Positions 22,397 to 40,761 of a DNA stretch of 52,157 bases are shown here, piece after piece. The translations under genes were made by a program, and so were the position numbers. The stretch is from a virus (lineage: Duplodnaviria; Heunggongvirae; Uroviricota; Caudoviricetes). The DNA is taken from positions 1 to 52,157 of the IMG/VR virus record IMGVR_UViG_3300026549_000047. One strand, written 5' to 3'. The notes under the pieces were generated by a model. It was given only the letters and a program-made list of their open reading frames with translations. It searched no databases and was not told where the DNA came from. Every line of letters begins with the position of its first letter. Within the stretch, counting starts at the first letter, position 1.

Positions 22397-22681
22397 TTAA
22401 TCTTTATGTCTTTTCCGAATTTCTTCTTTGAACTTTTTAAATTCGTTATCTTCAAAAGGTTCAATAAGTTTTCTTTCCTCCTCCTCTGGCATTTTCTCGC
22501 CAGTTCTTCTTTTATATTCTCGAATCTTTTTCATAGCTTCGAAAAATCCTGGACAACAGATATAATAGTGTTCACTATTGATTGCTTCATTTATTTTTCT
22601 CAGCTGATATTCCTGCTCTGATGTTGGATCTCCTTTTCCTGCCCAAACAAATCTATCTTTTTCTTTATCCATAGTTCCCAT
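22397..22681 (-). CDS. Hypothetical charged protein
   Basis: 94 aa; its ATG lies inside the stem of a three-way-junction element. Confidence 0.6.
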   Translation of the reverse strand: MGTMDKEKDRFVWAGKGDPTSEQEYQLRKINEAINSEHYYICCPGFFEAMKKIREYKRRTGEKMPEEEERKLIEPFEDNEFKKFKEEIRKRHKD

Positions 22682-22726
22682 AATCTGATCGAACAGTATA
22701 AGTCATATTTCAACTTAATTATGGGA
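22676..22726 (-). repeat. Three-way-junction element copy 1
   Basis: TCCCATAAT/ATTATGGGA stem, AAGT-loop-ACTT, CTG-TTCGAT-CAG, then GAACTA. Confidence 0.75.
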
Positions 22727-22753
22727 TTTATATTCACCTTGCCAAGTTTACGG

Positions 22754-22969
22754 TCAAAGCAACAATAGATTTAATCCAATTCCGCTAGCCATCCCTAAGG
22801 CATCAAATCCTAAGTCAAGCCAACACCAATGACCACCATAGACTTTATCACACCACTCTTTCGTAATGGCAGCACCTAAGGCAGCAGAGAAACCATACCA
22901 ACCAGTTAGGGAAAGTGCAAAGCAAATTCCGAAATGTTTGGCAGAATTCCAATCAATATGAATTTTCAT
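22754..22969 (-). CDS. Small membrane protein, YfiM/DUF2279-like
   Basis: KHF...KEWCD...WLDLGFDALG pattern. Confidence 0.55.
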   Translation of the reverse strand: MKIHIDWNSAKHFGICFALSLTGWYGFSAALGAAITKEWCDKVYGGHWCWLDLGFDALGMASGIGLNLLLL

Positions 22970-22991
22970 TTATCTTCTTTCCAAGTATTAT

Positions 22992-23462
22992 CTACTTGAA
23001 ATCTATTAAAGGATTCTTTTTGACTTCTTTTTTATACTTCTTGAAGTCTACTATCTTCTTAGCCTCTTTATCCATGCCATTATTTTTGAAAGCTTTGTAC
23101 ATATCTACTACATCCCCCGTTTCGTCGGCATTAAAATACTGCCCATTTTTGCCAGGCTTAGACTTAGGGACTACTCTAGATTCTGCATAACCACCATGCC
23201 CTAATTGACGTTGAGTTCTTACAGCAGCTGCTTCTGAAAGTTCTCTTGAGGTTTTCTCGATACCCTTTTTAGATAACTTTCTATCAAGATTAACTGCCTC
23301 TTCTGCGACGATGTTGTGATGTCTTCCCTTTTCAGCAGCACTTTTTAGATGACCAAGATATCCTCCACCATTCTCTTTAGTTCCTATCTCTTTGAGTATA
23401 TTAGACTTCTTAACTAATTTGAATGCTCTAGAGGTGAATAATTTATTCCTCAATATAATCAT
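22992..23462 (-). CDS. Leader-bearing basic protein (MIILRNKLFT)
   Basis: 156 aa with leader. Confidence 0.8.
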   Translation of the reverse strand: MIILRNKLFTSRAFKLVKKSNILKEIGTKENGGGYLGHLKSAAEKGRHHNIVAEEAVNLDRKLSKKGIEKTSRELSEAAAVRTQRQLGHGGYAESRVVPKSKPGKNGQYFNADETGDVVDMYKAFKNNGMDKEAKKIVDFKKYKKEVKKNPLIDFK

Positions 23463-23503
23463 TTCTCTCCTTATACTGAGGGATTACTGTCAATTTTAGC
23501 TTT

Positions 23504-23545
23504 TTGCCCCCCCCCCCCAGTATTCAAATTTAAGTGGGAGAGCAA
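23504..23545 (-). promoter_or_regulatory. G12-tract hairpin 1
   Basis: C12 at 23507-23518 on the plus strand; TTGC/GCAA outer stem; 45 nt before the ATG at 23462. Confidence 0.65.
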
Positions 23546-23551
23546 CAGTTT

Positions 23552-23803
23552 TTATTTCATCAATCTAGAAATCTCCTTAGCGAATTCTTTATCTGACATC
23601 TTCGTAGCTTCTGCTCGACCAATTCGCTTTAAAGCAGCTTCTCTAGTATTCTTTACTTTGTCCGAGTTGTAGTGACCTGGCTTACTCCACTCATTGACCT
23701 TCTTTAAGTTAGAATCCAAAAACTCGACGGCTTTGGGTTTCATTCCTTTTATTCTTCTCTTTGCCAGGTCTTGAATAAAGTCTGCCTTTCGTTTAATGAT
23801 CAT
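23552..23803 (-). CDS. Leader-bearing small basic protein (MIIKRKADF)
   Basis: 83 aa. Confidence 0.7.
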   Translation of the reverse strand: MIIKRKADFIQDLAKRRIKGMKPKAVEFLDSNLKKVNEWSKPGHYNSDKVKNTREAALKRIGRAEATKMSDKEFAKEISRLMK

Positions 23804-23920
23804 ATCACCAACTCATCTTTAGACTTATTGATCGAACAGAACCAGTTGCCTTAGGAAGAATAAATTTTCTCCTAAGTATTCTACGAGCAGGTTCAAGTCG
23901 ACCAAAGAAGTTTTTAGTCA

Positions 23921-24415
23921 TTACTTCATAAGTTTATGTGCTGCCAATAATCCTCCAGCAACACCTATTGTACTTCCAACAAGACCTCCAGCTTTCGAAT
24001 AATTACCAGGATGCTTTTCTGGATTTGCTAGGACAGCTTTGTTCTGATTTATGAGACCATGAATTCCATTAATTATCTTCTGCTTATTTTTATTTAGAAG
24101 ATTATAGTCATATTCGTCGGGGTCATCCCAATTCATTCCATACTGGTTAAGAAATGGTAATATATCATCGTCGCTAGTTAGTTTTCCGATATTTCTACCA
24201 GAAATAGTATGAGTGTTAAGATATTTAATCAAATCCTCTCGGGATTTCAATTGATCCTTTTGAGATTTAATATCTTTCTCATTAAGTGGTTTCTTGAATT
24301 TAGCTCCAATTTTTTCACCAATCCGTCCACCAACTAAACCACCAGCTACATATCCAGTACCGTATCCTAATACTTTTCCAGTTGTTGAAAAGTTTTTATT
24401 TCTTAGGATTATCAT
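23921..24415 (-). CDS. Leader-bearing glycine-zipper protein (MIILRNKNFS)
   Basis: 164 aa; GxxxG segments at both ends. Confidence 0.8.
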   Translation of the reverse strand: MIILRNKNFSTTGKVLGYGTGYVAGGLVGGRIGEKIGAKFKKPLNEKDIKSQKDQLKSREDLIKYLNTHTISGRNIGKLTSDDDILPFLNQYGMNWDDPDEYDYNLLNKNKQKIINGIHGLINQNKAVLANPEKHPGNYSKAGGLVGSTIGVAGGLLAAHKLMK

Positions 24416-24854
24416 TTTTCTTCTCTTTTATTTTCTTAGCCAATTTAGAAGTGGCTCCAGCCCCAACCAAAGCAAGACTAGCAATCTGTGCTTTCTTCAT
24501 TCTCTGGAAGGGCTTATTTCTCCTAACTGTCCTTAAAGCCATTTCATAACCACGCTCAGCTTCTTTCTGTGCTAACTTTTTTGCCTTAGCTTTCAACGAG
24601 GCCTTGTACTTCTCTTCCTGACCAGTTGCTCTGGCCATTGCTAGGTCGATGGCGTCTGGTTTGATTGTTTTATGAACCTGTATATCATTTCCAACCCTCT
24701 TACCACCAACTTTTTCGGCTGCTTTATCGAGGGCCTTGTTTATGATATGTTTTTGAGCAATCCCCGTTCCAACAATTGTTCCGGCTCCTGCTGCAATGGC
24801 TACATTTTCAGCTTTATCTTTTTTAGAGAAGAATTTATCTCTAAGTATTATCAT
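24396..24854 (-). CDS. Leader-bearing basic protein (MIILRDKFFS)
   Basis: 152 aa; 20-bp overlap with the next leader. Confidence 0.8.
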   Translation of the reverse strand: MIILRDKFFSKKDKAENVAIAAGAGTIVGTGIAQKHIINKALDKAAEKVGGKRVGNDIQVHKTIKPDAIDLAMARATGQEEKYKASLKAKAKKLAQKEAERGYEMALRTVRRNKPFQRMKKAQIASLALVGAGATSKLAKKIKEKKNDNPKK

Positions 24855-24873
24855 TTATTTAACAAATATTTAA

Positions 24874-25638
24874 TTAAACCACTCTGCTATTCTTGACTAA
24901 CTTAATGGCGCTTAATAAACATTCACAATACTTTCTCATATCAAATCCAGTATCACCATATTTATTATCCCACGCATCTAATCTATTAGCTAGTAGTTTA
25001 TTGTACTTTGGGTCAAAATTGATTTCTATTGCCCCAAATAAGTCATTATCTTTTATTCTCCACTCTTTGCGAGGATTATATGTTCTATCTTGAACATACC
25101 ACGCTTTCCTATCGAAATCCCAAAGATAGACTAGTTCATTACCAAAGGTGAATAAAACTTCAGCATAATCACCAGCACCCTTAGCACTAGGATCTGACAT
25201 ATAGTCTTCTCTATATGATCTGATTTCTTCAGGTTTAGCCAACACCATAAAACTTGGGAAACATTTCCAGATAAACTTTTGCCCTTCCTCAGGAACAGAT
25301 TTCAAAATTCGAAAATTGTAAGAAGATAATGCTGCTAATTTAGCATATTCCTTAATCTCTTTACAATATTCGTTAAAATTAGCATCCATTGGTACGTCAG
25401 AAAATTTCTTTTCAAGAGGACCGTGATCACCTTTACTGTGATCATTGCTAGTACTACCTGTTGCTGAATGTTTTTCTTTGATACCTTTAATGAAACCAAC
25501 CATTGCACCAAGAATAGTTCCTGGCCATAAGAAGTATAATTTAGCGTTCCCGCCGATAGGTATTCTAGGAGTAAACTTCTTTGCCCAATCAACAGTACTA
25601 GACCAAATACTAAATTGTTTATTTCTTAGAATTACCAT
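24874..25638 (-). CDS. Leader-bearing protein (MVILRNKQFS) with a TM segment, an internal KKFS site and a globular C-terminal domain
   Basis: 254 aa. Confidence 0.8.
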   Translation of the reverse strand: MVILRNKQFSIWSSTVDWAKKFTPRIPIGGNAKLYFLWPGTILGAMVGFIKGIKEKHSATGSTSNDHSKGDHGPLEKKFSDVPMDANFNEYCKEIKEYAKLAALSSYNFRILKSVPEEGQKFIWKCFPSFMVLAKPEEIRSYREDYMSDPSAKGAGDYAEVLFTFGNELVYLWDFDRKAWYVQDRTYNPRKEWRIKDNDLFGAIEINFDPKYNKLLANRLDAWDNKYGDTGFDMRKYCECLLSAIKLVKNSRVV

Positions 25639-26209
25639 TTTTAGCCTCCTTCTTTTTCTCTTTAGCTAACCATTTATTAAAATCCTCGCTAGCCTGCTTG
25701 CGTCTTCCAAGTACGTCTGTTAAAGTCTCTTTACCTTGTTTTTCGTACTTCTTACCAAGACGCTTAGAGTTTGCATAACCGGCTACAGCAGCAGTAGTTG
25801 CTGCACCAATAGCAGCCCCGGCTTTATTGTTAGCTGCAATACCAGGGAGTGCTCCCAATGCTGCTCCTGCAACAGCTCCCGAGATAGCTCCACGCTTTGC
25901 TCCTTTTTTCTTAGCATAGGCGCTAGAGTCTTTGATAATTTTCTCATCAGATTCTACAATAGGACCATCTTTATGAAAAGCATTATCTATCTCCTTTACA
26001 TCTGCATGGCCTTTTGCTATTTTTCCGCCCTTCCCTGCTTTCTTAGTATCATAGCCGAAAATGAACAACGCTTGTTTTCCAGTTTTCTGATGCATTAAAT
26101 CGTTAGCAACCATTGCTGATCTAAAACCTGGATCGTTAGGAGATATCGTTCCATATTTTCCATCAGCTTTAATGTCCCTAGAGAACTTTTTATTTCTAAG
26201 TATAATCAT
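25619..26209 (-). CDS. Leader-bearing glycine-zipper protein (MIILRNKKFS)
   Basis: 196 aa; GAISGAVAGAALGALPG segment. Confidence 0.8.
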   Translation of the reverse strand: MIILRNKKFSRDIKADGKYGTISPNDPGFRSAMVANDLMHQKTGKQALFIFGYDTKKAGKGGKIAKGHADVKEIDNAFHKDGPIVESDEKIIKDSSAYAKKKGAKRGAISGAVAGAALGALPGIAANNKAGAAIGAATTAAVAGYANSKRLGKKYEKQGKETLTDVLGRRKQASEDFNKWLAKEKKKEAKNGNSKK

Positions 26210-26256
26210 CCCTTTTCTTAATCAGGAGAGGGAAGATTATTGTTTATTTCAGTTCC

Positions 26257-26295
26257 ATTACTCCCCCCCCCCCTTGTTTAAAGTTTGGGAGTAAT
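26257..26295 (-). promoter_or_regulatory. G11-tract hairpin 2
   Basis: C11 at 26263-26273; ATTACTCCC/GGGAGTAAT stem; 54 nt before the ATG. Confidence 0.65.
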
Positions 26296-26312
26296 TTCCT
26301 TTATTGTCCTAG

Positions 26313-26360
26313 TTCCTGTAGTCTAATCGAATAGTAGAACCTAATAGTTCGCTACAGGAA
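26313..26360 (-). repeat. Three-way-junction element copy 2
   Basis: TTCCTGTAG/CTACAGGAA stem, GAAC-loop-GTTC, CTA-TTCGAT-TAG. Confidence 0.75.
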
Positions 26361-26370
26361 ATTTTATAAT

Positions 26371-26883
26371 TTAATCTTTCTTAAATTTCTTTCTATTGCC
26401 AGTTACTTTGTCATAAAGACCAACACCCTGTGCAACAGTAGTACCTACACCACCGAAACTTCCGGTAAGTGCCTCTGCAGTACCTGCTAGAACTCGACCA
26501 GTACTGTGGTGCTTTCCCCTATTTTCGAGGTATTCACGAATCTCTTCAGTCGACTTTCCTTCCTCAGCCATCTGCTCGGCCTTCTTCTTTACGTAAGTTG
26601 AAACACCGGGAGCGAACAAGCCCTTGAGTGCATAACCAGCCCTCTTTTTCTTGTAGTCCTCCTTGTTATCGTAGCCATACTTAGCAGCTTCTTTAGCTTG
26701 ATAGCTACCGGGAGCAAGAAGTCCAAGTGCTTTAGATTTTGCACCATACTCTCTTTGCTCAAGTGTCTCGGAATAGAGTTTCAGATATTCCTCTTCTGTT
26801 ATGATAGAGTCAGCACTAAACAGCCTCTCCTCTCCAGTCTCTTCATCAATTGCTGAGAAGTAAACCTTTCTTTTAATTAACAT
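26371..26883 (-). CDS. Leader-bearing protein (MLIKRKVYFS) with internal RLFS and QREYG sites
   Basis: 170 aa. Confidence 0.8.
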   Translation of the reverse strand: MLIKRKVYFSAIDEETGEERLFSADSIITEEEYLKLYSETLEQREYGAKSKALGLLAPGSYQAKEAAKYGYDNKEDYKKKRAGYALKGLFAPGVSTYVKKKAEQMAEEGKSTEEIREYLENRGKHHSTGRVLAGTAEALTGSFGGVGTTVAQGVGLYDKVTGNRKKFKKD

Positions 26884-26921
26884 CTCTTTTAATTCAGTTC
26901 GGAGAGGGTGTGGTTATGTAT

Positions 26922-26967
26922 TGCTACTATCCCCCCCCCCGGTTAAACGAATTGAAGGGATGTAGCA
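26922..26967 (-). promoter_or_regulatory. G10-tract hairpin 3
   Basis: C10 at 26931-26940; TGCTAC/GTAGCA outer stem; 48 nt before the ATG. Confidence 0.65.
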
Positions 26968-26979
26968 TTTAATTAGTCT

Positions 26980-27456
26980 TTATTTCTTTTTCTTTCTTAG
27001 CTTTAGCGTCTGTTTTACGAGATTCTTCTTTCCCTCGATTTCATCGTTGGGAATATATCCATGATCGTATCCATAACGTGAATCTTTATTGGCGTTTTTC
27101 ATCAAAGATTTTGATATTCCTTCTCCTCGAGGACGACCTAGTGGACCTATTTCTTTGCCACCAAATATAGGTGATTGTTGACTTCTAATAGCCTGTGCAC
27201 CATTACCTAATTGACTGGCCCTAATATTTATCCTATCATCGACACTACGTTTGGCTGTTTTAAATGTTTTACTAATACGTCTACCTTCTTTACGGATAGC
27301 GTTACTTACATCTTCTATTTTCAAAGCCTCCTGTAACCGTCTTCTAGGTACATTTGTATCGATATTAGGAGAAGATAAGCCTTTCGCTAAATCATAGGCC
27401 TTTCTAAGGGCTTTTTGCGCTTTACTCGAAAACTCCTTATTTCGAAGTATAATCAT
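26980..27456 (-). CDS. Leader-bearing basic protein (MIILRNKEFS)
   Basis: 158 aa. Confidence 0.8.
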   Translation of the reverse strand: MIILRNKEFSSKAQKALRKAYDLAKGLSSPNIDTNVPRRRLQEALKIEDVSNAIRKEGRRISKTFKTAKRSVDDRINIRASQLGNGAQAIRSQQSPIFGGKEIGPLGRPRGEGISKSLMKNANKDSRYGYDHGYIPNDEIEGKKNLVKQTLKLRKKKK

Positions 27457-27493
27457 TCTCTCTTTTTGGTATCAGAGGGAGATGATTCTTTTG

Positions 27494-27543
27494 TTTACGG
27501 CCCCCCCCCCCGATACACAACTTTCAAAAAGGGAGACAGTAAA
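27494..27543 (-). promoter_or_regulatory. G11-tract hairpin 4
   Basis: C11 at 27501-27511; TTTAC/GTAAA outer stem; 45 nt before the ATG. Confidence 0.65.
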
Positions 27544-27550
27544 TTTTAAT

Positions 27551-28030
27551 TTAATTAGGCCTTACTTCCATTTTCATCCTACTAAGACCGTTCCAAGAGC
27601 TATTATCTAGTTCTCTTATGTCGCCAGTTTCTTTAAAACCTAGCTTTTCATAGATATGTTTAGCATCTGGAGCATTTCCTGGAACTTCTAACTCCAATAT
27701 TTTAAATTTCAACTCCTTAGCTAAACTTATGCACCACTCAATCACACTGGTAGCATATTTATTACCTCTATGACTTTTGTTAATATCAATCCAAGCGACT
27801 TCCATAGAGTCTTTTCCAGATTTTCTTAAGTGAAGACTTCCAATATTATTACCATCCTTTATAATACTGTAGTAGATAAAGTCTTCTGGTTTTTCCCGGA
27901 TTGATTGAACATATTTATTTAGAATTCTATGAGACTTAGGATAACTGCCCTTCACTAAACTAAGTCCATTAAGTAATTCTACTTTCTTAGGACACTTAAG
28001 GGCAAAGCATCCATTCCGCAATACTATCAT
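27551..28030 (-). CDS. GNAT-family acetyltransferase with leader (MIVLRNGCFA)
   Basis: Acetyl-CoA motif A (IDINKSHRGNKYAT) and motif B (AKHIYEKLGF). Confidence 0.8.
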   Translation of the reverse strand: MIVLRNGCFALKCPKKVELLNGLSLVKGSYPKSHRILNKYVQSIREKPEDFIYYSIIKDGNNIGSLHLRKSGKDSMEVAWIDINKSHRGNKYATSVIEWCISLAKELKFKILELEVPGNAPDAKHIYEKLGFKETGDIRELDNSSWNGLSRMKMEVRPN

Positions 28031-28055
28031 ATCTTAAGTCTCTTTAGTTATTAGT

Positions 28056-28099
28056 TCCCTGAGTTACATCGAAGCATAGACCTTTACGTCTCTCAGGGA
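28056..28099 (-). repeat. Three-way-junction element copy 3
   Basis: TCCCTGAG/CTCAGGGA stem, AGAC-loop-GTCT, TGC-TTCGAT-GTA (G.U pair on the minus strand). Confidence 0.75.
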
Positions 28100-28110
28100 T
28101 ATACTCTGTA

Positions 28111-28809
28111 TTAATTTTCCTTTTTCTTACCGAGTAACTTACTAGCACCGCCTGCCACAATGCTAGCAGCAGCTGCACCAGCGGCAATCTTTGTACCCTT
28201 ACCTGCATTACGGAAGGCATTGATTGCATTAGCCTTGTTAGCGATCTTAGCACTCTGACTCTTAGCCAGCTGTGCCACACGCTCAGTCGTGGCCTTAGAA
28301 GTTGCGTTTGTATTGGCAGCCTTGAGGTTAGCCTTACTGAGAATCTTATTGCCAGTTGAATCAGCAGTAGCCTTTAAACCTTTAGCAGCCTGGTAGCCAG
28401 TATAACCCAGAGCACCAGTTGCGCCTAGAGCAGTAGCAGTTGATGCATCCTCAGCTACGTCCTTAGCAGTCGAGAATAACTTCAGACGACCATTCTCAGA
28501 AAAATTCTTTTCCTTTTTCTTGTCCTTAGCTTTCTTAACTGCAACAGCGCCGGCCACAGTACCAGCTGCAATACCAGTAGCAATAGCAGTCTTCTTATTA
28601 GCCTTGGCAGTTTCAACAACAGCCTTAGCAGCTTTGGCTACACGACCTTTGAGAGTCTTAGACTGAGCAATCTCAGCCTGACGTGCGGTCTCTTTCTCAG
28701 CAGCCTCCTGTGCGAAACGCTGACGAGAACGATTGGAAGCAAGATTAACTTTTTTCTTGCCGCCACCTTTATTTTTTGTGCCGAATTCGGCCTGTTTAAG
28801 TACTAACAT
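28111..28809 (-). CDS. Leader-bearing Lys/Ala-rich two-module protein (MLVLKQAEFG)
   Basis: 232 aa; internal KNFSENGRLKLFS double site. Confidence 0.8.
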   Translation of the reverse strand: MLVLKQAEFGTKNKGGGKKKVNLASNRSRQRFAQEAAEKETARQAEIAQSKTLKGRVAKAAKAVVETAKANKKTAIATGIAAGTVAGAVAVKKAKDKKKEKNFSENGRLKLFSTAKDVAEDASTATALGATGALGYTGYQAAKGLKATADSTGNKILSKANLKAANTNATSKATTERVAQLAKSQSAKIANKANAINAFRNAGKGTKIAAGAAAASIVAGGASKLLGKKKEN

Positions 28810-29039: not shown

Positions 29040-29044
29040 ATCTT

Positions 29045-31096
29045 TTAAAATATATTTTCCAACATGCTCTGGAACTGTAGGTTAGAATCTTCTTTAGCTG
29101 ATTTAACCATATCAGTAACCAGGTGTAACTGTTTATCGACTCCATTCGAATATCCTTGTTCCTCACCAGCATCAATAGACATTTTCAGACTATAACAAGC
29201 TGAGGCAAGTGAATCCCAGACGTCCTTAGAGCCTTTTCCATTATTCCTATCAAAGACTTGCGGATTGTTTGTAGCCTTAGTCGGGTGATCTATCTTATAT
29301 CCCTTTCCCGTCGGTACATATCTTAAGTCATAGGCCTCTCTTTGAAGTCGTCTGTTTTCGGGTAATGAGATTAATCCCTGCATAATCAAGTTCTTCAGGT
29401 AGAGAGCTGGTTCACAAGGAACATTATCTGTTGAGATTCGCCCATTAGTCTTTATATTTTCACGCTCACAGTCTTGTAAGATTTGTTTTGAATATGCCTG
29501 GTCGGCTGATACTATAACATTATAATCTTTTTTCAAGGCCATAATTAGGTCAAAGACGTGATGCAAGCTTGTCTCCTGTCCATCTTTTCTCGCCACTGCC
29601 ACAGTGAAATAACATTTTACCTTAGGCATTTTTGAGTCTCCCATAAATTCCCAGTGATCAAACTGAACACAGCTTATTCCAGCATAGTCATTATTCGTTG
29701 CTAGGTCTAAGCCAATCCAAATAGAAGTCCCGAACGGAATCATGTCTATGGCGGGTTGAAGTTTATCTATAAGTCGATCTGTCTTATCGAAGAAATCAAC
29801 GGTTACGACTTCTGGAATGGGGTTCTTTATACCTCTACTACACTCCACCAACTTTTTAATTGATCCATTAAAGAATAGATCTGATGAACTTGTTGAGATA
29901 CCGCACTTATCTTGTAGCATCTTAATCAAGTTTTGTTTTGCCTCCACCTTAAGCTGGATAGGAACATTTATAACACGCTCAGGGTCTTGATCAAGGGCAA
30001 GTTTATAGCCTTCTGGTAAAATCTGAGCAGGGTATTTTCCATCACCAGTATAGACAGGAAACGTTACTCCTTTAGAATCAACATAATCTTGAGGCTTAAC
30101 AGCAAAATGTGTTGGGTGACAATAGTAAGTAAGCTCTCTAGGGGAATTATCTAGGAACCATTCAGTCGAGGAATTATCTCCTTTACTAGACGAGTCTATA
30201 ATGAGATTACCCACCATCTTAAGCGCTTGGGAATTGAAACGCGAAGTCATACGACCATAGGCCGACTCAACAATTCCCTGAGCTCTTTCTGGGTTAGGGT
30301 AGAAATTTAACTCACTTAGAATATAGCAATATTTATATCATGTTTGACACAACATTTGGAATATATCTTTAGCCAAAAGGCTAGTTAAGCACATATTCTC
30401 TAAACCAGGATTTCTGGCTTGGCATTAAGATTTATCTATTCGCCAAATTATCTAAACTGATTATCTACAGAGTTTCCCTTGTAGACGGCCAATTAAAACC
30501 AATACATCAGATCCCAGACCTACGCGTCCACCTAAAGGACCAGATGTAATAAATTGGAGTTTAAATTTCCTTTTAACGTTTTTGAAAAACGGAACTTTCA
30601 TCAATGCTTCATCCTTAAACCACTTAATAAACTCAGCGTATCCTACGTTTTCATCTCGATGGGTCACAACGAAGGAAAAGGGTTTAGGGACGAGGTGAAG
30701 AGTTTTAGAAGGGTTTTTCATACAGAGAAGTCTTGCATAACAATTAGCCATGCAAAGTCTCGAAACTGTAGATTTGCCAATTCCTATGGCTCCCGATAGT
30801 ATTAGAAACGGATATGCTGTGGTCACCTCGGATGGAAATATCTTTGGTAACTCATCTCTCCAAAACTTATATATAGATCTACCACCATCAAAGAAATCAG
30901 CACTTCCTAGGTAGTAGTCATCAGAGTATAATTGTTCTATTGTTGGAGGCATTCTGTTATACCCATTTACCTTCAAAAATACTAACTTTTTCTCTCTTTC
31001 TGATAAATTTGTATATTGTGTTTGAAAAGTTATCCCAGCTAGTTCATCCGTCAGATCCCTAGAAGGATCAAATTGATCTATAAACTTCTGGTTCAT
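29045..31096 (-). CDS. terL: Terminase large subunit, two exons: 31096-30498 and 30326-29045, 626 aa spliced
   Basis: Walker A ILSGAIGIGKST; splicing rebuilds the Walker B region DVLVYILSE; RNase H-like WIGLDLAT and KDVWDS motifs. Exon lengths 599+1282 nt = 627 codons. Confidence 0.85.
30327..30497 (-). ncRNA. Small ORF-less group I intron (171 nt) in terL
   Basis: P1 GGU/GCC; P2 with GAAA loop; P4 UUGGC/GCCAA; P7 GAAUAU/AUAUUC; P8 UAGCC/GGCUA; terminal G; frame restored. Confidence 0.8.
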
Positions 31097-31124
31097 AATC
31101 TTTAATAATTAAATTTATACTAGC

Positions 31125-31175
31125 TCCTACAGTCCTATCGAAAGGTATCAAGCTTATTTCACTCAAACTGTAGGA
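31125..31175 (-). repeat. Three-way-junction element copy 4 (upstream of terL)
   Basis: TCCTACAGT/ACTGTAGGA stem, TGAAATA loop, CCT-TTCGAT-AGG. Confidence 0.7.
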
Positions 31176-31183
31176 TTTATTCT

Positions 31184-33050: not shown

Positions 33051-33101
33051 CTTTCCTTGTCCTTTTCTTAGGGAGAGGAAGTATTGTTATATCACTTTAT
33101 C

Positions 33102-33140
33102 GATCACCCCCCCCCCTATTGCTAGAAAATTGGGATGATC
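33102..33140 (-). promoter_or_regulatory. G10-tract hairpin 5
   Basis: C10 at 33107-33116; GATCA/TGATC outer stem; 57 nt before the ATG. Confidence 0.65.
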
Positions 33141-33146
33141 AACACT

Positions 33147-34003: not shown

Positions 34004-34046
34004 TGTTATGTGTCTCCTTTAAATTAGTTTAGTTTGGTATTAGAGT

Positions 34047-34096
34047 TCCCATAACTGCTTCGATGCATAGAGACGTATTTCATCTCAGTTATGGGA
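34047..34096 (-). repeat. Three-way-junction element copy 5
   Basis: TCCCATAACT/AGTTATGGGA stem, GAGA-TGAAATACG-TCTC, GC-ATCGAA-GC. Confidence 0.7.
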
Positions 34097-34115
34097 TTTA
34101 TAGGGTATGATAAGA

Positions 34116-34634
34116 TTATTTCTTTTTATTATCTTTTAGAGATTTTGCAACTAAAGCAGAGCCTGTAGCAATACCACCGGCCGCTAAAGCTATATTCTTC
34201 TTGTTATGTTTAGCAACATATTCTAAGCCTGCTTTCTTGCCAAACTTATTAGCCAGTTTATCTGCAACTACGCCAGCTTTTACTGACTTTTTGGCGTCGT
34301 TTTCTAGTTTTCGAACTTTCAAGACACCTTTAATTTTATCTTTTATACTAGCCGGGCTTTTTAATATAGCCTTCTTAGCTTCCTTGGCTTGTTTAGAAAC
34401 CTCTTTCTGGGTGTCTATAATTTCCTTCTCACCGGCTTTTGCACTCTTATATGCTTCGGTATCTTTAATATAGTCCTTAGCACCTTCTTTAACACCTTCA
34501 TAGGTTCCGTGAACTATTCCAGCATTGGCACCACCTACTCCGAGAGCAGTAAGACCGGCACCATAAGTAGCTAGACGCTTCTTATCAATTTTCTTCTTTT
34601 CTTCTGAAAAGTTTTTATCCCTCAATATAATCAT
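34116..34634 (-). CDS. Leader-bearing Lys/Ala/Gly-rich protein (MIILRDKNFS)
   Basis: 172 aa. Confidence 0.8.
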   Translation of the reverse strand: MIILRDKNFSEEKKKIDKKRLATYGAGLTALGVGGANAGIVHGTYEGVKEGAKDYIKDTEAYKSAKAGEKEIIDTQKEVSKQAKEAKKAILKSPASIKDKIKGVLKVRKLENDAKKSVKAGVVADKLANKFGKKAGLEYVAKHNKKNIALAAGGIATGSALVAKSLKDNKKK

Positions 34635-34676
34635 TTTATTCTCTCCTACTGAGGGAAGATTATTATTCTCTTACAC

Positions 34677-34718
34677 ACGTCCCCCCCCCCCAGTATCGAT
34701 TCTAAACGAGGGAAACGT
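34677..34718 (-). promoter_or_regulatory. G11-tract hairpin 6
   Basis: C11 at 34681-34691; ACGT/ACGT outer stem; 47 nt before the ATG. Confidence 0.65.
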
Positions 34719-34736
34719 CTTTTTCATTCTCTTAGT

Positions 34737-34787
34737 TCTCCTAGTCGTATCGAAACGTAGAACCAATGTTGTTTGTTCGCTAGGAGA
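34737..34787 (-). repeat. Three-way-junction element copy 6
   Basis: TCTCCTAG/CTAGGAGA stem, GAAC-loop-GTTC, CGT-TTCGAT-ACG. Confidence 0.75.
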
Positions 34788-34790
34788 TTA

Positions 34791-35267
34791 TTATTCTTTT
34801 TCTTTCTCTGCTCTCTTTCTAAGACGTGCTTTAGTCTGTACGCCAGCTGATGCACGACCACCTATTCCACCTAAGATAGCCCCAACTGTACCAGTTACGC
34901 CAGCACCTTGGGCCATGTTCTTAGCAGTTCTCTTGGTAACTTCTTGCTGAACGCCTTTACCAATGGTCTTCCAGGCTTTACCTTTTGGTGCCATCACAGC
35001 ACCCGTTACAGCGGCAATAGCTCCGCCACTAAGTGCACCAACATTCCGACCAGCCTTCTTGGCACGATCTATAATCTCTATGTCACGCGCACCTTCTTCG
35101 TCAGCTTTATCGGCAGCTTTCTTACCGGCCTTGCGACCAAAATAAGCACCACCAAAACTGGCCTTAGAGGTAATCGCTGTTCGAACCATACCACGATTAG
35201 ACTTAACGTCTTTCAGAGAAACTTTCTTCTCATCCTTAGAGAAGTTCTTATCACGTAGTAATATCAT
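34791..35267 (-). CDS. Leader-bearing glycine-zipper protein (MILLRDKNFS)
   Basis: 158 aa. Confidence 0.8.
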   Translation of the reverse strand: MILLRDKNFSKDEKKVSLKDVKSNRGMVRTAITSKASFGGAYFGRKAGKKAADKADEEGARDIEIIDRAKKAGRNVGALSGGAIAAVTGAVMAPKGKAWKTIGKGVQQEVTKRTAKNMAQGAGVTGTVGAILGGIGGRASAGVQTKARLRKRAEKEKE

Positions 35268-35521
35268 TTCTTTACTTTCTTCTTGCCATGAAGCACCTTC
35301 AGTGGCTTAGTATAACCTTTGATTCGGTTTCTCCATCTACTGGAAGCTTTATCAACGACGGGATGTATTCCTTCCGTTCTGTCTAAGGCATCGTCAAGAA
35401 TATCTGCTGTTCTGACTATGCCATCATCAATATCCTGCTTAAGTTGAGCAGAACCTTGTTTATAGCTAGTCCCAAAAATGGGTTGATAGCCAGAATAGTT
35501 TTTATTCCTAAGAATTACCAT
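35264..35521 (-). CDS. Leader-bearing small protein (start MVILRNKNYS at 35521)
   Basis: An internal ATG gives the leader. Confidence 0.75.
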   Translation of the reverse strand: MVILRNKNYSGYQPIFGTSYKQGSAQLKQDIDDGIVRTADILDDALDRTEGIHPVVDKASSRWRNRIKGYTKPLKVLHGKKKVKK

Positions 35522-35654
35522 AAATATCAATTCAAAGCCTTATATATGTAACAAACTAACTAATAATAACTATGATTAGTTTTATTGAATACATCAGGCA
35601 ATTAATAAGTCGTTGGATGACTTGTAGCCGGGAGGATGGGCCCAAAGTAGTGGG

Positions 35655-36428
35655 TTAATCCTCTTTCTTTTTCTTCTTCCTGGCAACTTTGTATGAGATA
35701 CCTCTACTAAGCTCCCCTAGTCCAGCATTCATAGCTGTCTGAGTTCCATATGTACCCCAAAGAGAACCCAATTGTACACCAGACTTTAAGAGTTGCCCTT
35801 TCTTAGCTCCTGCACCTTTCAGGTATCTAAGTCCTTTAGCACTAGCGGCTGCCTCAGAAACCAGCATAGGAGAAGCAACAAGTACTGGTGCTGCCCAGGC
35901 GGCATGACGAATAACCTTATTCTCTTGTTTTCCTTGTTCTTCTGCTTTAGCCTTAGCAATTCCACTACCTATTCCGGCTATGATAGCAGCGTTTTGTGAA
36001 TGTCCAGCAAAACCATAAGTACCACCACCTCCTAAATAAACCTTGTGGGCAGCCTTACCTATTCTAGTGCCAGCACCTCTTTCTACATCAAAGTGTGCAT
36101 GACCTAGTTCGTGAGCAATTTCACTTGGATTGTAAGAACCATTTCTAAAGACGGTTCCTTTTCCGTATGCAGGACCAGGAATTCCTCCACTCTCAGGAGA
36201 AACTTTAATTCCTCTCTTTTCAGCTTCAGCTACCAACCTGTCAGAAAGTGCTTGTTGTTCTGGGGAATATACTCTGTTGTCGCCCTTGATCTGCCTAATC
36301 ATTATAGGTGCAGCAAGAGCCGAATTAGCAATAAAAGAACCACCTAGGATAGCAGCTCCTCGCTTTATATCTTTATTATCTTTCTTCTTCTCGTCCTTAG
36401 AGAAGTTCTTATCACGTAGTAATATCAT
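35655..36428 (-). CDS. Leader-bearing zinc metallopeptidase-like protein (MILLRDKNFS)
   Basis: IAHELGHAH zinc motif plus downstream EAAAS third-ligand segment; hydrophobic helices. Confidence 0.7.
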   Translation of the reverse strand: MILLRDKNFSKDEKKKDNKDIKRGAAILGGSFIANSALAAPIMIRQIKGDNRVYSPEQQALSDRLVAEAEKRGIKVSPESGGIPGPAYGKGTVFRNGSYNPSEIAHELGHAHFDVERGAGTRIGKAAHKVYLGGGGTYGFAGHSQNAAIIAGIGSGIAKAKAEEQGKQENKVIRHAAWAAPVLVASPMLVSEAAASAKGLRYLKGAGAKKGQLLKSGVQLGSLWGTYGTQTAMNAGLGELSRGISYKVARKKKKKED

Positions 36429-36443
36429 ATACCTCTTCTTAAT

Positions 36444-36476
36444 CTCCCCCCCCCCCCGTTTAAAACGGAAAGGAAG
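36444..36476 (-). promoter_or_regulatory. G12-tract hairpin 7
   Basis: C12 at 36446-36457, pairing with CTTCCTTTCC; 18 nt before the ATG. Confidence 0.6.
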
Positions 36477-36558
36477 AAGGAAGAGATATTTTAATTAGAA
36501 TTTTGCAATTTATTTAATCGCTATGCCCTATAAGTGTAGGTAAATTAATTTTAAACCT

Positions 36559-36882
36559 ATGAAAATAGCAATTAAATCTGGCTTATTATCGATAAAGCCA
36601 CTAAAATCTAAGTGGGATGGATTTGATACAGGGATTATAGTTCCAAAATATGCTCCAAATCCACTATCTTTAAAAAGAATAGAGAGTGCTTGTCTTTGGG
36701 AAGTTCTTGATTCAGATAAAACTCTAGAAGAAGAACTTGGGGAAGATAATATTCTTCTTTTAGTTCCTGGAAAATATAAATTTGAAAAAATTCCAGAAGA
36801 ACCGTATTTCGGAAGATTAATCAATACTGAAACTGGTCAATCTGTTGAAGAAATGTTTGACTCTAGTTACCCTTACTATTGA
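36559..36882 (+). CDS. Hypothetical protein; the only convincing plus-strand gene
   Basis: 107 aa, very AT-rich; occupies a gap with no credible minus-strand gene. Confidence 0.6.
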   Translation: MKIAIKSGLLSIKPLKSKWDGFDTGIIVPKYAPNPLSLKRIESACLWEVLDSDKTLEEELGEDNILLLVPGKYKFEKIPEEPYFGRLINTETGQSVEEMFDSSYPYY

Positions 36883-36917
36883 CAATCCCATTAAAACAGG
36901 ACTGCCATTTTATTCTT

Positions 36918-37028
36918 TTAGAACATCTTCATCATTGGATCAAACCCACGTTCAACCCTCTGCTCATTCAGCTGCTGGTCTTCTACCTCAGCTGTGAAGC
37001 GTTTTTCTTTTTCTTGAACCATGTTCAT
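36918..37028 (-). CDS. 36-aa peptide (MNMVQEKEKRFTAE...)
   Basis: Translated by hand; contains a KRFT site. Confidence 0.4.
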   Translation of the reverse strand: MNMVQEKEKRFTAEVEDQQLNEQRVERGFDPMMKMF

Positions 37029-37035
37029 AGTAGTA

Positions 37036-37431
37036 TTACTTTGGCATCGCAACAGGCTGAACAGCCTTCGACTTAGTCTTATAAAGGGCTGTATTATCAG
37101 GTTTCTGATTAGCCACTTCCTGTTGACGTGTTCTAATTCTATCTTTATTTTCAGACTGCTCCTTCTCGTTTTCCATCTTCTGCAATTGAGTCATGTTCCT
37201 AGCCTTAGCCATTTGTTCTTTGGCTAGGAGCTGTTGACGCTGGTGTTGAATCTGGATCTGCTGTCTTTGCAGCTTCATCTGTTCGAGTTGAAGGTCTTTA
37301 GCAGTTACTTCCTGAGAATTATCATCCCCTTGCTTTGGTAATTGCGGTTGCTTCCCAGGATCAATTGTTTCCCCGGGCTTGGGGATTCTATTAGCCTGTT
37401 GTGCGAAGGCTTTATTTCTCAGTACTATCAT
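37036..37431 (-). CDS. Leader-bearing Gln-rich coiled-coil protein (start MIVLRNKAFA at 37431)
   Basis: An internal ATG gives the leader; 20-bp overlap with the upstream gene. Confidence 0.75.
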   Translation of the reverse strand: MIVLRNKAFAQQANRIPKPGETIDPGKQPQLPKQGDDNSQEVTAKDLQLEQMKLQRQQIQIQHQRQQLLAKEQMAKARNMTQLQKMENEKEQSENKDRIRTRQQEVANQKPDNTALYKTKSKAVQPVAMPK

Positions 37432-37774
37432 TCTTCTTGCTCTTATGATATTTATAACCAGCAGCTGCCAAAACAGGAACACTAGCAAGAGCTACCGCTT
37501 TACCAGTCCTATCCAGGTTTCGGATGGCCTTACTAACCACCAACTTCTTTCCTTCCGTAGCTTCTCCTACCAAGTCACGGGAGTGTCCTTGAATAGATTC
37601 ACGGAGAGCTCTTAACTGCTCTGGGGTTGCTTTTTTGGCTTTTCCCTTTCCCTTGAAGAGGTCAGCCTGATTCTTAGCACCCAAAGACATGGCGCCACCG
37701 AGGCCAGCCATCGTGGTTCCGGCAGCGACACCTGTCTTTGCGATTATTTTGTCTTTGTTGTCTTCTTTCTTCAT
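37412..37774 (-). CDS. Basic glycine-zipper protein without leader
   Basis: 120 aa; same composition as the cargo family; ATG overlaps the portal stop. Confidence 0.7.
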   Translation of the reverse strand: MKKEDNKDKIIAKTGVAAGTTMAGLGGAMSLGAKNQADLFKGKGKAKKATPEQLRALRESIQGHSRDLVGEATEGKKLVVSKAIRNLDRTGKAVALASVPVLAAAGYKYHKSKKNDSTEK

Positions 37775-39477
37775 AGTTCCTCTTCAGTAGGATCAGGTTG
37801 TTCAGTTAAGATCGAAGCATCCATTCCCTGCTGTTCTGCTTGGGCAGTAAGTTTAGCTTGCATCCACTTGGTATACATTTCCTTTGTCTTATCCGTTATG
37901 AGAGCCTCCGTATCAGGATCGATGTCTTTAATGAGGTTCTGGATATAGTTGAGGTATGCATCTGTATCTATAAGTGGAGCAGCCATGTCGAGTGCCTGGA
38001 GTGAGTTGGTTAGGATACCAGTGATACCAGTCACAAGACCTGAGATGGATTCACTCTGATTAATCTGATTGTTATATTCAACACTTGTCTTCTCTGATAT
38101 ATGAAGGCGAATAAGCGATGGGTCAATCTCTTCTCCATACAAAATATTATAAAGAGTACAGACAAGGGCCGTTACACTATCCTTGATACCAGTCATGAAA
38201 CCAGCAACCCTTGAGTTAGCACGTTCACTGCTCTGAAGGATGGCCCACTTAGAACCACTCGTTGAGTCAAGGATTGTACTAGGGATACCAAGCGGAGAGA
38301 GGACGTTATTTCTACATACATCCAAGTTCTGCATGATATCCATAAGTTTATCAGAGAGTTTATCAAGGGGCAACATATTATTCTTATTGCCCAATGTTGA
38401 ATTATAGTCAGGAACAAACTTAGCACTCTGAGTCATCGTATTCTCAAGGAATGATACTACATCAAACTGAGAAGTCAAGAACGAGGCAAGTTCGTTTGTA
38501 TTGTTTGCAAGTTTTGTTGTTCGGGCACAGAGCTCATTGGCAGTCTCCATTGGAGTGCTCTTATCGAATTGAAGGAGGAAAATCTGAACGCTACTTAAGT
38601 CTCGCAAAGAAATAAGCGAAACAAGTAACTCTTTGATTATTAACTCCTTAACTTTCAAAATCAATGAGTAGAACAGTGGTTCACCTGCTGAGTAGCTGCA
38701 TTGACGGAGAACCATCTTCTTAGCTACTTCCACATCTGTTAATCGAGTAGCTGATTTAGGTTTCTCCTGTTGGTCCTTCTTCTTAAGTCCGTAATCATCC
38801 TCCAAGTCATTGATTAAGCGAAGATTGATGGAGCCTAAAGTGAAAGCATCATTTCTACCAATCTCGTAGAGTTTACCATCTTCACCACGAACAATGTAGG
38901 TCTCCTCTATTTCACCATCTGCATTTCTTTTTTTCTTGGTGATTACTGAGACAGGATCGAATAATTCCTCTACACGAAACTTAAGATGACCAAGCTCATC
39001 ACGCTGACGACATAACATACTAGTATATTGACCATAGAAGACTGTATCCTTGATATGGTCTCGAATATAATCAAAGATCTTAATATCTTTTGTCAGGATG
39101 TCATTAATACGTTCTGTCTTACCTTCATCAGTATTGCCTTCGTCATCTAAGATCGTTACTACTTGCTGACCTGAGTCCTCTAAAAAGTTTACTACATAGT
39201 CAGCAAAAAAGTTTGTAGCAAGCTTAACAACATCTAAGAGTTGATAGCCTTTCAGTTCATCCACTCTTTCATAGTACCCGCTGATTAAGGATGAAGGAGA
39301 ACTTGAACCCAAAAGAGGCGATTCACGATTAGTTCCTGTTGCTCCGAACTTTGTAGACCCAATAGGCGAGTATCCTCTACCACCTGAGCCAAATATATTT
39401 GATTTAAGTGGAACTCGGCTATTCCAACCACCTATTCCACCAAACATTTTCTGGAAAAATCCTTCTTGCTTTTTCAT
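37771..39477 (-). CDS. Portal protein (T4 gp20-like)
   Basis: 568 aa with portal-like organisation (...LSPLGIPSTILD...); size and position in the head module. Confidence 0.7.
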   Translation of the reverse strand: MKKQEGFFQKMFGGIGGWNSRVPLKSNIFGSGGRGYSPIGSTKFGATGTNRESPLLGSSSPSSLISGYYERVDELKGYQLLDVVKLATNFFADYVVNFLEDSGQQVVTILDDEGNTDEGKTERINDILTKDIKIFDYIRDHIKDTVFYGQYTSMLCRQRDELGHLKFRVEELFDPVSVITKKKRNADGEIEETYIVRGEDGKLYEIGRNDAFTLGSINLRLINDLEDDYGLKKKDQQEKPKSATRLTDVEVAKKMVLRQCSYSAGEPLFYSLILKVKELIIKELLVSLISLRDLSSVQIFLLQFDKSTPMETANELCARTTKLANNTNELASFLTSQFDVVSFLENTMTQSAKFVPDYNSTLGNKNNMLPLDKLSDKLMDIMQNLDVCRNNVLSPLGIPSTILDSTSGSKWAILQSSERANSRVAGFMTGIKDSVTALVCTLYNILYGEEIDPSLIRLHISEKTSVEYNNQINQSESISGLVTGITGILTNSLQALDMAAPLIDTDAYLNYIQNLIKDIDPDTEALITDKTKEMYTKWMQAKLTAQAEQQGMDASILTEQPDPTEEEL

Positions 39478-40184
39478 GTCTTTACTTTGCCAAATTCGTT
39501 ATTAAATAATTTCATAAAGTTATTTATTGCTTCCTTACTTTCTTCACTATCAAAATCCAAATCAGAATTTTCTTCTGCTAGCTTCTGAAGTTCAAGATCA
39601 TCTCCTTCAATTTCCATAGTATCCTTAAGATCACCTAAGGTCTGGATATAGGAAATAAGTTTTTCAATTACCAAAAACTTATCAGCCAGGGTTAATTCGC
39701 TTGAATCTAACATGTTCTCTGGTCTCGTCACATAGTCAATAACCAGAGACAATCTCTGTATTAAGTGAAGACTCAGGACAGCTTTTGCATTTCTATATAT
39801 ACGGCTGGTATACAGCTCTAATATTCGTGTCGATTTAGGATCTGTTGCAACCGTAGCTAGCGTATTTGAAAGAGAATGCAAATCCAAGTTTAATTGGATT
39901 CCATACTGCTTATTATAGGAAGTAAAGATGTCATTAAGAGCTAACTCCATCTCTGCTGCCTTTTTCTCTTTCTCATTCTTGGCAATGGCACTAGCATCAA
40001 GGATCATATTAGTTGCAGCTTTTTTGGGGATACTGGGAGCGCCGACAATTATATTCTTAAGATCTGACTTCTCCTCTATGATATCATCAAAAAGCTCATA
40101 ATCGTCGGAAGCCTCTTGTTTCCCTTCCTTCGCAAGAATCTTCTCTTTGAATTCCTTGCTATTAAATGGGTTCATTGCTTCCAT
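39474..40184 (-). CDS. Helical acidic protein upstream of portal, candidate terminase small subunit
   Basis: 236 aa; assignment by context only. Confidence 0.35.
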   Translation of the reverse strand: MEAMNPFNSKEFKEKILAKEGKQEASDDYELFDDIIEEKSDLKNIIVGAPSIPKKAATNMILDASAIAKNEKEKKAAEMELALNDIFTSYNKQYGIQLNLDLHSLSNTLATVATDPKSTRILELYTSRIYRNAKAVLSLHLIQRLSLVIDYVTRPENMLDSSELTLADKFLVIEKLISYIQTLGDLKDTMEIEGDDLELQKLAEENSDLDFDSEESKEAINNFMKLFNNEFGKVKT

Positions 40185-40193
40185 ATTTCTTTT

Positions 40194-40370
40194 TTACTTA
40201 AGTTGGGATGAGACCATCTGATTGTGGTCGGTGTTCATGAACTCTTGAGCTCTCTGAATCTGAGCTTGTTCTGAACTATCTTCTATTGCTTGGTTTGCCT
40301 GAGACCTATCCATATCGGTCCCTGCATTTCCCATAGCAGCATTAAAAGTTTTTCTACGTAAGACTATCAT
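40194..40370 (-). CDS. Leader-bearing 58-aa peptide (MIVLRRKTFN)
   Basis: Translated by hand; below the ORF-track cutoff. Confidence 0.7.
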   Translation of the reverse strand: MIVLRRKTFNAAMGNAGTDMDRSQANQAIEDSSEQAQIQRAQEFMNTDHNQMVSSQLK

Positions 40371-40485
40371 AACTCGTTTTCACTTATCTTGGAGGGAGAG
40401 TCACTCCCAGCATTTCCGGGCTCCCTCTCTAGCGTTCTTTCATAAGTTCCTAACTACGTTGGCTACTGTTCTTCACCACACTTAC

Positions 40486-40638
40486 TTAAATCCAGCGTGC
40501 ATACTTATACCACTCCGGACCAAGTAATTTCTCGTAGTTTTCAGCCGACTTGTTAAGATACCAGACAATAGGTTTGACAATAACCACCTTGCCAGTCTTC
40601 TTTGCAGCCTTTCCGAGTTTGCAAATTACTGTCTTCAT
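40486..40638 (-). CDS. 50-aa basic peptide (MKTVICKLGKAAKK...)
   Basis: Translated by hand. Confidence 0.5.
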   Translation of the reverse strand: MKTVICKLGKAAKKTGKVVIVKPIVWYLNKSAENYEKLLGPEWYKYARWI

Positions 40639-40643
40639 ACTAG

Positions 40644-40693
40644 AATTCTCCCAAGGACTTGAACCTTGGTTAGGCCTCTTGTACCTGAGAATT
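40644..40693 (-). ncRNA. Truncated tRNA-like element (acceptor stem plus T-arm only)
   Basis: AATTCTC/GAGAATT stem and CCAAGG-TTCAAGT-CCTTGG T-arm; no full D or anticodon arm and no CCA. Confidence 0.4.
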
Positions 40694-40711
40694 ACTCGGA
40701 ATTTCGTTTAG

Positions 40712-40761
40712 TTCTGAGAGTCACGTCGAGGTGTAGGACCGGATTATGTCCGCTCTCAGAA
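40712..40761 (-). repeat. Three-way-junction element copy 7
   Basis: TTCTGAGAG/CTCTCAGAA stem, CGGA-loop-TCCG, CAC-CTCGAC-GTG. Confidence 0.7.

Follow-up and report, generated by a model that had tools for sequence, protein, structure and literature searches.

What is the short element that recurs between genes, always on the same strand, in a phage whose proteins mostly resemble no known family? The question is raised by a stretch of 52,157 nucleotides (nt), hereafter the window, which makes up the first 52 kb of IMG/VR virus record IMGVR_UViG_3300026549_000047 (122 kb; Caudoviricetes), referred to here as G000. CheckV estimates the record at about one third of a genome, implying a phage of roughly 370 kb. 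Almost all genes in the window are on the minus strand, and their products mostly lack a Pfam or PHROG family match. An earlier note, made from the sequence of the window, described seven copies of a covarying three-way-junction element and proposed either a structured RNA signal (processing site, regulator-binding site or small RNA) or a hairpin-type late promoter. Here we show that the element belongs to a wider family of structured RNAs having the dimensions of the top half of a transfer RNA (tRNA), and we consider the possibility that these RNAs punctuate phage messages.

Covariance models recovered 45 distinct copies of the element across G000, four of its IMG/VR relatives and metagenome contigs, the relatives having been obtained by protein searches of IMG/VR and metagenomes. 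The closest of these, G001, is a 96% relative of G000 and carries seven copies; G003, G004 and G007, with terminases 74%, 69% and 52% identical to that of G000, carry seven, six and five copies, respectively. In each genome, all copies have the same orientation and are grouped around the terminase and virion-cargo genes. The covariance models detected no copy in the distant relatives G002, G005 and G006, and none in a negative control of 80 unrelated viral loci (750 kb), each containing the sequence pattern TTCGAT..GGAACTA, in which the maximum score was 22.5 bits. An exact DNA pattern scan of viral contigs returned at least 117 single chance matches and no relatives, and these matches supplied the negative control. 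A tblastn search of GenBank phages with a 568-residue protein produced no match, and a genome-contig scan with the terminase revealed no bacterial relative.

Within the window, the element is present on the minus strand at all seven sites first reported. Single-sequence folds agree, giving the three-way junction or a close alternative for each copy with z-scores of -2.7 to -5.3, and the opposite strand folds somewhat less well. A loose pattern of the 3' half of the element occurs on the minus strand of the window only at these seven sites. The covariance model called for by the earlier note was built from the seven copies (model R1) and gives them 57-72 bits on the minus strand compared with 10-16 bits on the plus strand. 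The original count was one short, an eighth copy having been missed (Table 1); beyond these eight, covariance models detected nothing more anywhere in the 122 kb of the record. One candidate for a degenerate copy, located at 23804-23920 (CTGTTCGATCAA), was discarded as it did not fold into the element plan.

The element is about 52-55 nt long and comprises, in order, two flanking bases, a closing stem of 8 base pairs (bp), a junction base, hairpin 1, a UA linker, hairpin 2, a single base, the 3' strand of the closing stem and a tail. The outermost pair of the closing stem is U-A in 39 of the 45 copies and C-G in four, and in about half of the copies the junction base pairs with its counterpart to form a ninth pair. 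The stem of hairpin 1 measures 3-7 bp; its loop varies, reading UGAAAUA in about half of the copies, and the conserved UA of the linker is at times accompanied by one or two unpaired bases. Hairpin 2 consists of 3 bp closed by a 6-nt loop, N-U-C-R-A-N, represented in the DNA by TTCGAT (27 copies), TTCAAT (eight), TTTGAT (three), ACCAAA and CTCGAC (two each), and ATCGAA, ATCAAA and TTCGAA (one each). The base between hairpin 2 and the 3' strand of the closing stem is usually A, and the tail reads N-C-U/A-N with C at its second position in every copy. The three-way plan described in the earlier note holds, and the dimensions require revision: a closing stem given as 8-10 bp has 8, with a ninth in about half of the copies, hairpin 1 varies and is not fixed at 4 bp, the linker of 1-6 nt contains the conserved UA, and the GA of the supposed GAACTA tail is paired, leaving N-C-U/A-N unpaired. 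Two structural ideas were tried and rejected, namely a kissing dimer formed via a palindromic UCGA, given that UCAA, UUGA and CCAA loop variants exist, and hairpin 1 as an anticodon arm, given that its common loop (GAAAUAU/UGAAAUA) lacks U33.

Covariation was measured on an alignment of the 45 distinct copies (A8). Standard pairs occupy 97.9% of pair cells compared with 64.3% in shuffled alignments, pairing being 99.7% for helix 1 and 98.5% for helix 3, and it drops to 43-52% when partners are shifted by one column. Double changes are seen at all 15 modelled pairs, with 234 double-change cells observed versus 59.8±6 in the shuffles, and none of 500 shuffles matched the observed covariation. 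Chance is excluded as the source of the family. Among 33 distinct copies, G.U accounts for 25 of 162 pairs in hairpin 1, and the remaining helices contain four G.U and no A.C pairs. By hand count on the alignments, elements of G000 and G001 show about 17 differences, none of them pair-breaking, and four stem differences are switches between G.U and Watson-Crick pairs. Because G.U pairs are found on the coding strand only and the differences between G000 and G001 preserve pairing, the comparison of sequences indicates that the element would act as an RNA of the coding (minus) strand, in agreement with the structured, covarying minus-strand RNA originally proposed.

That this RNA was previously undescribed also holds: a cmscan of the whole window against Rfam at the gathering score gave no match, and the E-value mode around copies 5, 6 and 7 gave chance-level matches only. 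Known self-cleaving ribozymes have no Rfam match in the window, and a hammerhead core could not be accommodated by the short junction strands of the element (1, 2-3 and 1 nt). A T7-type RNase III site spans about two helical turns (roughly 20 bp), as opposed to a longest helix of 8-9 bp in the element, and the cloverleaf of a complete tRNA has four arms, as opposed to two arms and a closing stem.

The dimensions of the element are those of a tRNA top half. The T stem (5 bp) and acceptor stem (7 bp) of a tRNA together make 12 layers, and 12 nt (3+1+8) separate the end of loop 2 from the first tail base in 41 of the 45 copies, the arrangement of an acceptor stem stacked on a T-arm hairpin over about 12 pairs. 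U-C-R-A, the core of loop 2, is the most conserved part of the T-loop. The first tail base is A in 31 copies, G in seven, U in four and C in three, a preponderance of A that resembles discriminator bases. The 3' end of the element is also like that of the tRNA genes of these phages, all 25 of which (seven in G000 and 18 in two relatives, L119 and L133) encode N73-C74 and then depart from CCA. In eight of them the end reads N-C-U-A, which is also the tail seen most often in the element. The encoding of C74 without C75-A76 in phage tRNA genes suggests a 3' maturation route that keeps C74.

Two larger or outlying cousins in G000 have canonical T-loops (Table 1). The first, immediately following copy 7, was not detected by the covariance models, and at the syntenic place in G004 there is a bare 7+5 acceptor/T-arm minihelix located 5 nt ahead of an ATG. 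The second is two-armed, begins about 10 nt past the stop codon of an open reading frame (ORF) whose product we take by eye to be OmpA-like, lies 180 nt upstream of tRNA-Phe, and is called by neither ARAGORN nor the covariance models. G004 also encodes a PolyA_pol (CCA-adding enzyme / poly(A) polymerase) head domain at 66824-67204 within a 494-residue open frame. As a separate observation, the location of copy 7 and its cousin is syntenic to a tRNA array in the distant relative G002 (L119, 400-9950), where about 16 tRNA genes and tRNA-like fragments lie upstream of a homologue of the 568-residue protein.

Table 1. Copies of the element, tRNA-like cousins and associated features in the window and in the remainder of record G000
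Feature	Position	Strand	Structure and scores	Context
Copy 8	22342..22398	-	Loop 2 UUCGAU; tail ACAA; linker UGG, not UA; bulge in hairpin 1; 36.4 bits (model R1), 54.5 bits (model R2)	Starts at stop codon of 94-residue ORF
Copy 1	22672..22728	-	71.6 bits; tail ACUA merges into AUG (ACUAUGG)	25 nt past stop of 71-residue ORF
Copy 2	26310..26361	-		9 nt past stop of Gly-zipper 'family 0' gene; followed by G-tract hairpin
Copy 3	28052..28101	-	G.U pair in hairpin 2	9 nt past stop, 21 nt ahead of next ATG; bridged by RNA contigs
Copy 4	31121..31177	-		24 nt 5' of first terminase exon; RNA contig ends at 31123 and 31132 (two runs, one sample)
Copy 5	34043..34098	-	Loop 2 AUCGAA	17 nt past stop, 39 nt ahead of next ATG
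Copy 6	34733..34789	-		1 nt past stop; followed by G-tract hairpin
Copy 7	40709..40762	-	Loop 2 CUCGAC	5 nt past stop; larger tRNA-like cousin next; bridged by RNA contigs
Larger cousin	40645-40700	-	Same three-way plan; closing stem 6-8 bp by fold; hairpin 1 4 bp; 2-nt linker; canonical T arm CAAGG-UUCAAGU-CCUUG	Follows copy 7; ends 4 nt ahead of ATG of 50-residue ORF
Outside cousin	G000:75672-75728	+	3+1+8 plan; 3-bp stem with canonical 7-nt T-loop UUCGAAU; 8-bp closing stem; tail GCA	Outside the window
Seven tRNA genes	74500-80403 of record (74.5-80.4 kb)			Outside the window
Terminase intron	30327-30497			Apparently spliced out in RNA contigs
Extra unit relative to G001	22342-22681			94-residue ORF + copy 8
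Gene-precise insertions or replacements relative to G001	22981-23436, 23922-24866, 26995-27410			Also in third-strain RNA contigs
Hairpins with G10-12 tracts	23463-23551, 26210-26300, 26884-26979, 27457-27550, 33051-33146, 34635-34730, 36429-36470
Segment missing from G001	36496-36915 (~420 nt)			Overlaps plus-strand ORF 36559-36882 (107 residues)

On account of the 12-nt spacing, the invariant C, the A-rich first tail base, the ends of the phage tRNA genes, the U-C-R-A loop, the intermediate forms and the CCA-adding/poly(A) polymerase-family protein of G004, we read the element as a likeness of a tRNA top half. The transcript would fold into a miniature acceptor/T-arm structure in which the 8-bp closing stem corresponds to the acceptor stem, and the 3-bp hairpin with its N-U-C-R-A-N loop to a shrunken T arm, stacked on the closing stem via the continuous 12-nt 3' strand. 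The first tail base would take the place of the discriminator, the invariant C that of C74, and hairpin 1 would be a variable extra arm. The same measurements and C74-like base, the presence of multiple copies per genome and the CCA-adding-family enzyme of a relative could also be explained if the element were a small stable RNA gene, its product being the excised RNA of ~52 nt, which might act as a sponge or decoy for enzymes recognizing the tRNA acceptor and T arm. We consider this scarcely probable, since the stems differ freely and, outside the loop and tail, the copies share no sequence that could serve as a guide or decoy.

The position of the element relative to genes points to a role in the organization of messages. 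It starts at a median of 9 nt past a same-strand stop codon and within 30 nt of one in 41 of the 45 copies, and the next ATG is a median of 25 nt downstream, most often 21-25 nt, or ~100 nt away where a G-tract hairpin intervenes. The start codon is directly adjacent to the tail in copy 1 and L146. Copies on the coding strand, close after stop codons and with the next ATG near, fit punctuation, and we tentatively propose that the element is a tRNA-like punctuation signal, comparable to the t-elements of plant mitochondria and cut by RNase P and/or RNase Z, a reading that we regard as quite possible and short of probable. We infer the cleavage and the identity of the enzymes as follows. Elements would be transcribed within polycistronic minus-strand phage messages, and host tRNA-maturation nucleases would recognize the minihelix by its 12-layer helix and T-loop-like cap and cut the message at the borders of the element, RNase P at the 5' edge and RNase Z, or a comparable 3' endonuclease, at the discriminator-like base or immediately beside it. 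Such cutting would leave the upstream virion-cargo mRNA ending within or just ahead of a stable structure, and the downstream gene with a leader of about 20-25 nt, or almost none. Of the functions initially listed, we accordingly favour the processing site, in the more specific form of an acceptor/T-arm mimic. The hairpin-type late promoter is not favoured because the elements hug the upstream stop codon, similar copies front unrelated genes, and RNA contigs cross copies 3 and 7.

The spacing to the next start codon also bears on a different kind of signal, an operator whose loop 2, UA linker and tail are read by a phage or host RNA-binding protein that sets the translation or decay of the flanking genes. 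Conserved unpaired bases (the UA linker, the N-UCRA-N loop and the C of the tail) displayed on freely varying helices would suit such a protein, a start codon often follows at 21-25 nt, and about half of the copies share the loop 1 sequence. However, no candidate binding protein was identified, the bimodal distance to the next start (~22 or ~100 nt) makes direct occlusion of the ribosome site unlikely, and the tRNA-like measurements and the cousins with true T-loops would be left unexplained. We therefore judge an operator to be decidedly unlikely.

Transcripts of the region are represented in bovine-gut metatranscriptome runs, which contain 91-94% of sampled words of the 26-35 kb stretch. RNA contigs of two runs join 30326 directly to 30498, the terminase intron apparently having been spliced out, and the region is therefore expressed. 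The same intron is missing from the DNA of G001, and the terminase gene of G004 is uninterrupted (622 residues). The RNA data consist of assembled contigs, in which neither contig ends nor uncovered stretches can show true RNA ends or cleavage. Contigs of several runs end in, or 0-17 nt past, copies 2, 4 and 6, some end at or near copy 5, and the end of one coincides precisely with the C74-like base of copy 4 (31123). As a sign of cleavage, contig ends at elements are a weak hint.

These contig ends, several of which lie in or just past elements, would also be expected if the element were a 3'-end stabilizer or a structure-dependent terminator or attenuator operating independently of tRNA enzymes, the compact junction behind highly expressed virion-cargo genes either blocking 3' exonucleases or pausing or ending the phage RNA polymerase to yield more upstream than downstream message. 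The short distance to the preceding stop codon would suit such a function, as would the frequent placement of elements after Gly-zipper cargo genes of an abundant type and ahead of low-copy genes such as the terminase. We nevertheless think it rather unlikely. Ordinary terminators do not account for the element: its tails read ACUA followed by A-rich sequence and have no U tract, and no copy is among the sites called as minus-strand terminators, whereas ordinary hairpin+U terminators exist elsewhere in the window. Moreover, a simple hairpin needs no invariant C, fixed 12-nt spacing, UA linker or conserved loop, and copies 3 and 7 are read through.

The proposal of cutting by tRNA enzymes has difficulties of its own. 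As a T arm, hairpin 2 is a poor mimic, its 3-bp stem and 6-nt loop contrasting with the 5-bp stem and 7-nt loop of the consensus GGTTCRANYCC, and two cousins in G000 have canonical 7-nt loops on the same plan. With A or C at loop position 1 in some lineages, a U54-A58 pair is not always possible, the pair equivalent to +1/+72 is U-A and not G-C, and the UCAA and UUGA variants are expected CpG-decay products of TCGA and hence no proof of an R57-type constraint. The Rfam tRNA model (RF00005) has no match at E<=10 around copies 5-7, and ARAGORN makes no call anywhere in the window. An RNase Z encoded by the phage was not found either, making the host enzymes an assumption. The RNA contig ends are scattered, some (31180, 26376 and 34793) lying ahead of the element, and because contigs bridge copies 3 and 7, any cleavage is partial at best.

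The genes preceding elements frequently belong to one paralogous family whose glycine-zipper matches are weak and below cut-off, and among the genes that follow are the terminase and two other large, conserved ones; Pfam and PHROGs left nearly all of the element-neighbouring proteins without assignment. The glycine-zipper paralogues (160-190 residues; MYIRRKVFS..GEERLFS) include members at 8721-9254, 12549-13753 and 17052-18046 in L130 (G004) and at 26371-26883 in the window. One to several of them stand directly upstream of the terminase and of the 564- and 413-residue conserved genes, and all but one of those seen are followed by a three-way-junction element. A homing-endonuclease cassette was considered and rejected, the upstream 'family 0' having weak glycine-zipper matches and not being a nuclease. 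Similar element sequences are found between different gene pairs in different genomes, indicating that genes and elements have been shuffled. In G004 a gene and its element are duplicated in tandem, and compared with G001 (L122) the window has one extra unit consisting of the 94-residue ORF and copy 8, with both junctions inside the GRGAAC tails of copies 1 and 8. Further gene-precise insertions or replacements relative to G001 are listed in Table 1; some indel break points fall in or near a shared leader of ~10 codons (MIILRNKNFS) of the cargo genes and others at gene ends.

Such exchanges would be expected were the element to function as DNA, either as the boundary or recombination site of 'ORF+element' cassettes or as a hairpin promoter on single-stranded DNA. 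The difference of exactly one such unit between G000 and G001, the reuse of similar copies between different gene pairs and the tandem duplication in G004 are all in keeping with this. A parallel is the integron attC site, which likewise maintains structure over a variable sequence, lies right after the stop codons of small variable genes in one orientation, and is matched here by one indel with junctions at element tails. Unlike attC, however, only some genes carry the element, its stem ends are UCCC../..GGGA with AC unpaired, the R''/R' core sites (RYYYAAC/GTTRRRY) are absent, and its G.U pairs favour a one-strand RNA. No tyrosine recombinase/integrase (PF00589) was found in five related phage fragments, all of them incomplete. 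Gene-precise indels also occur away from elements, at shared leader sequences, so the junctions in the tails may merely reflect modular shuffling, and the promoter form fits poorly with the tight link to upstream stop codons and with read-through RNA contigs. A DNA-level role is thus very unlikely in our estimation. We give similarly little credence to two composite scenarios: that 'ORF + element', delimited by the tails, is a unit both of RNA processing and of gene gain or loss, as the copy 1/copy 8 indel might indicate, or that excised mimics of ~52 nt accumulate, acquire CA from the phage CCA-adding-family enzyme, and serve as decoys or sponges for host enzymes or defence nucleases recognizing the tRNA acceptor and T arm.

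Two further features of the region were noted in passing. Hairpins containing G10-12 tracts occur at seven places (Table 1), each followed by CUUCCCUC..GAGAG-type pairing just ahead of the start codons of leader genes; in the gaps following copies 2 and 6 the three-way junction comes first and the G-tract hairpin second, and RNA contigs often break at these hairpins. The segment missing from G001 (Table 1) overlaps a plus-strand ORF in an otherwise minus-strand region.

If the elements are indeed cut by tRNA enzymes, giant phages of gut anaerobes would organize their late messages by tRNA punctuation. This form of punctuation is known from mitochondria, and we found no description of it for phages in the literature searched. 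The family illustrates how far the top half of a tRNA may shrink while keeping a 12-layer helix, discriminator and C74, an acceptor mimic extended to 8-9 bp making up for a T stem cut down to 3 bp, and this compensating design could serve as a natural test of the features measured by RNase P, RNase Z and CCA-adding enzymes. With 45 covarying members it is a well-supported addition to the RNA motifs missing from Rfam, and the covariance model can be used to mark the borders of genes in genomes whose proteins almost all lack a recognizable family.

A literature search found no paper on such elements in phages, and the family is best placed by comparison with known tRNA-like systems. Its tRNA-like relatives within these genomes, the bare 7+5 minihelix of G004 and the larger cousin next to copy 7, are of the plain acceptor/T-arm kind with a regular T arm, whereas the element has a shortened T-arm mimic. 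The family is a distinct three-way-junction form that combines the 8-9 + 3 bp compensation with an N-C tail lacking CCA, and its support from covariation is unusually strong. With canonical tRNA genes it shares the 12-nt 3' strand from T-loop to discriminator, the mostly-A discriminator and the U-C-R-A loop core, and with the seven tRNAs of this phage an encoded C74 lacking C75-A76. Unlike a tRNA gene, it has no D arm, anticodon arm or anticodon, its T stem is of 3 bp and its loop of 6 nt. The t-elements are tRNA-like structures at the ends of plant-mitochondrial mRNAs and can direct RNase P and RNase Z cuts in mRNAs (Forner et al. 2007, PMC1920247). At a length of about 70 nt, they retain the complete GGTTCRANYCC T arm, in contrast to the phage element of ~52 nt, which has a 3-bp T-stem mimic, a 6-nt loop and one extra arm only, occurs in bacteriophages as multiple covarying copies per genome, and is known here from sequence. 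Both are nonetheless non-decoding tRNA-like folds that lie in messages beside coding regions and combine an acceptor-like stem with a T-arm-like hairpin, and both are proposed, as has been partly shown for the t-elements, to specify the ends of mRNAs through cleavage by RNase P and RNase Z.

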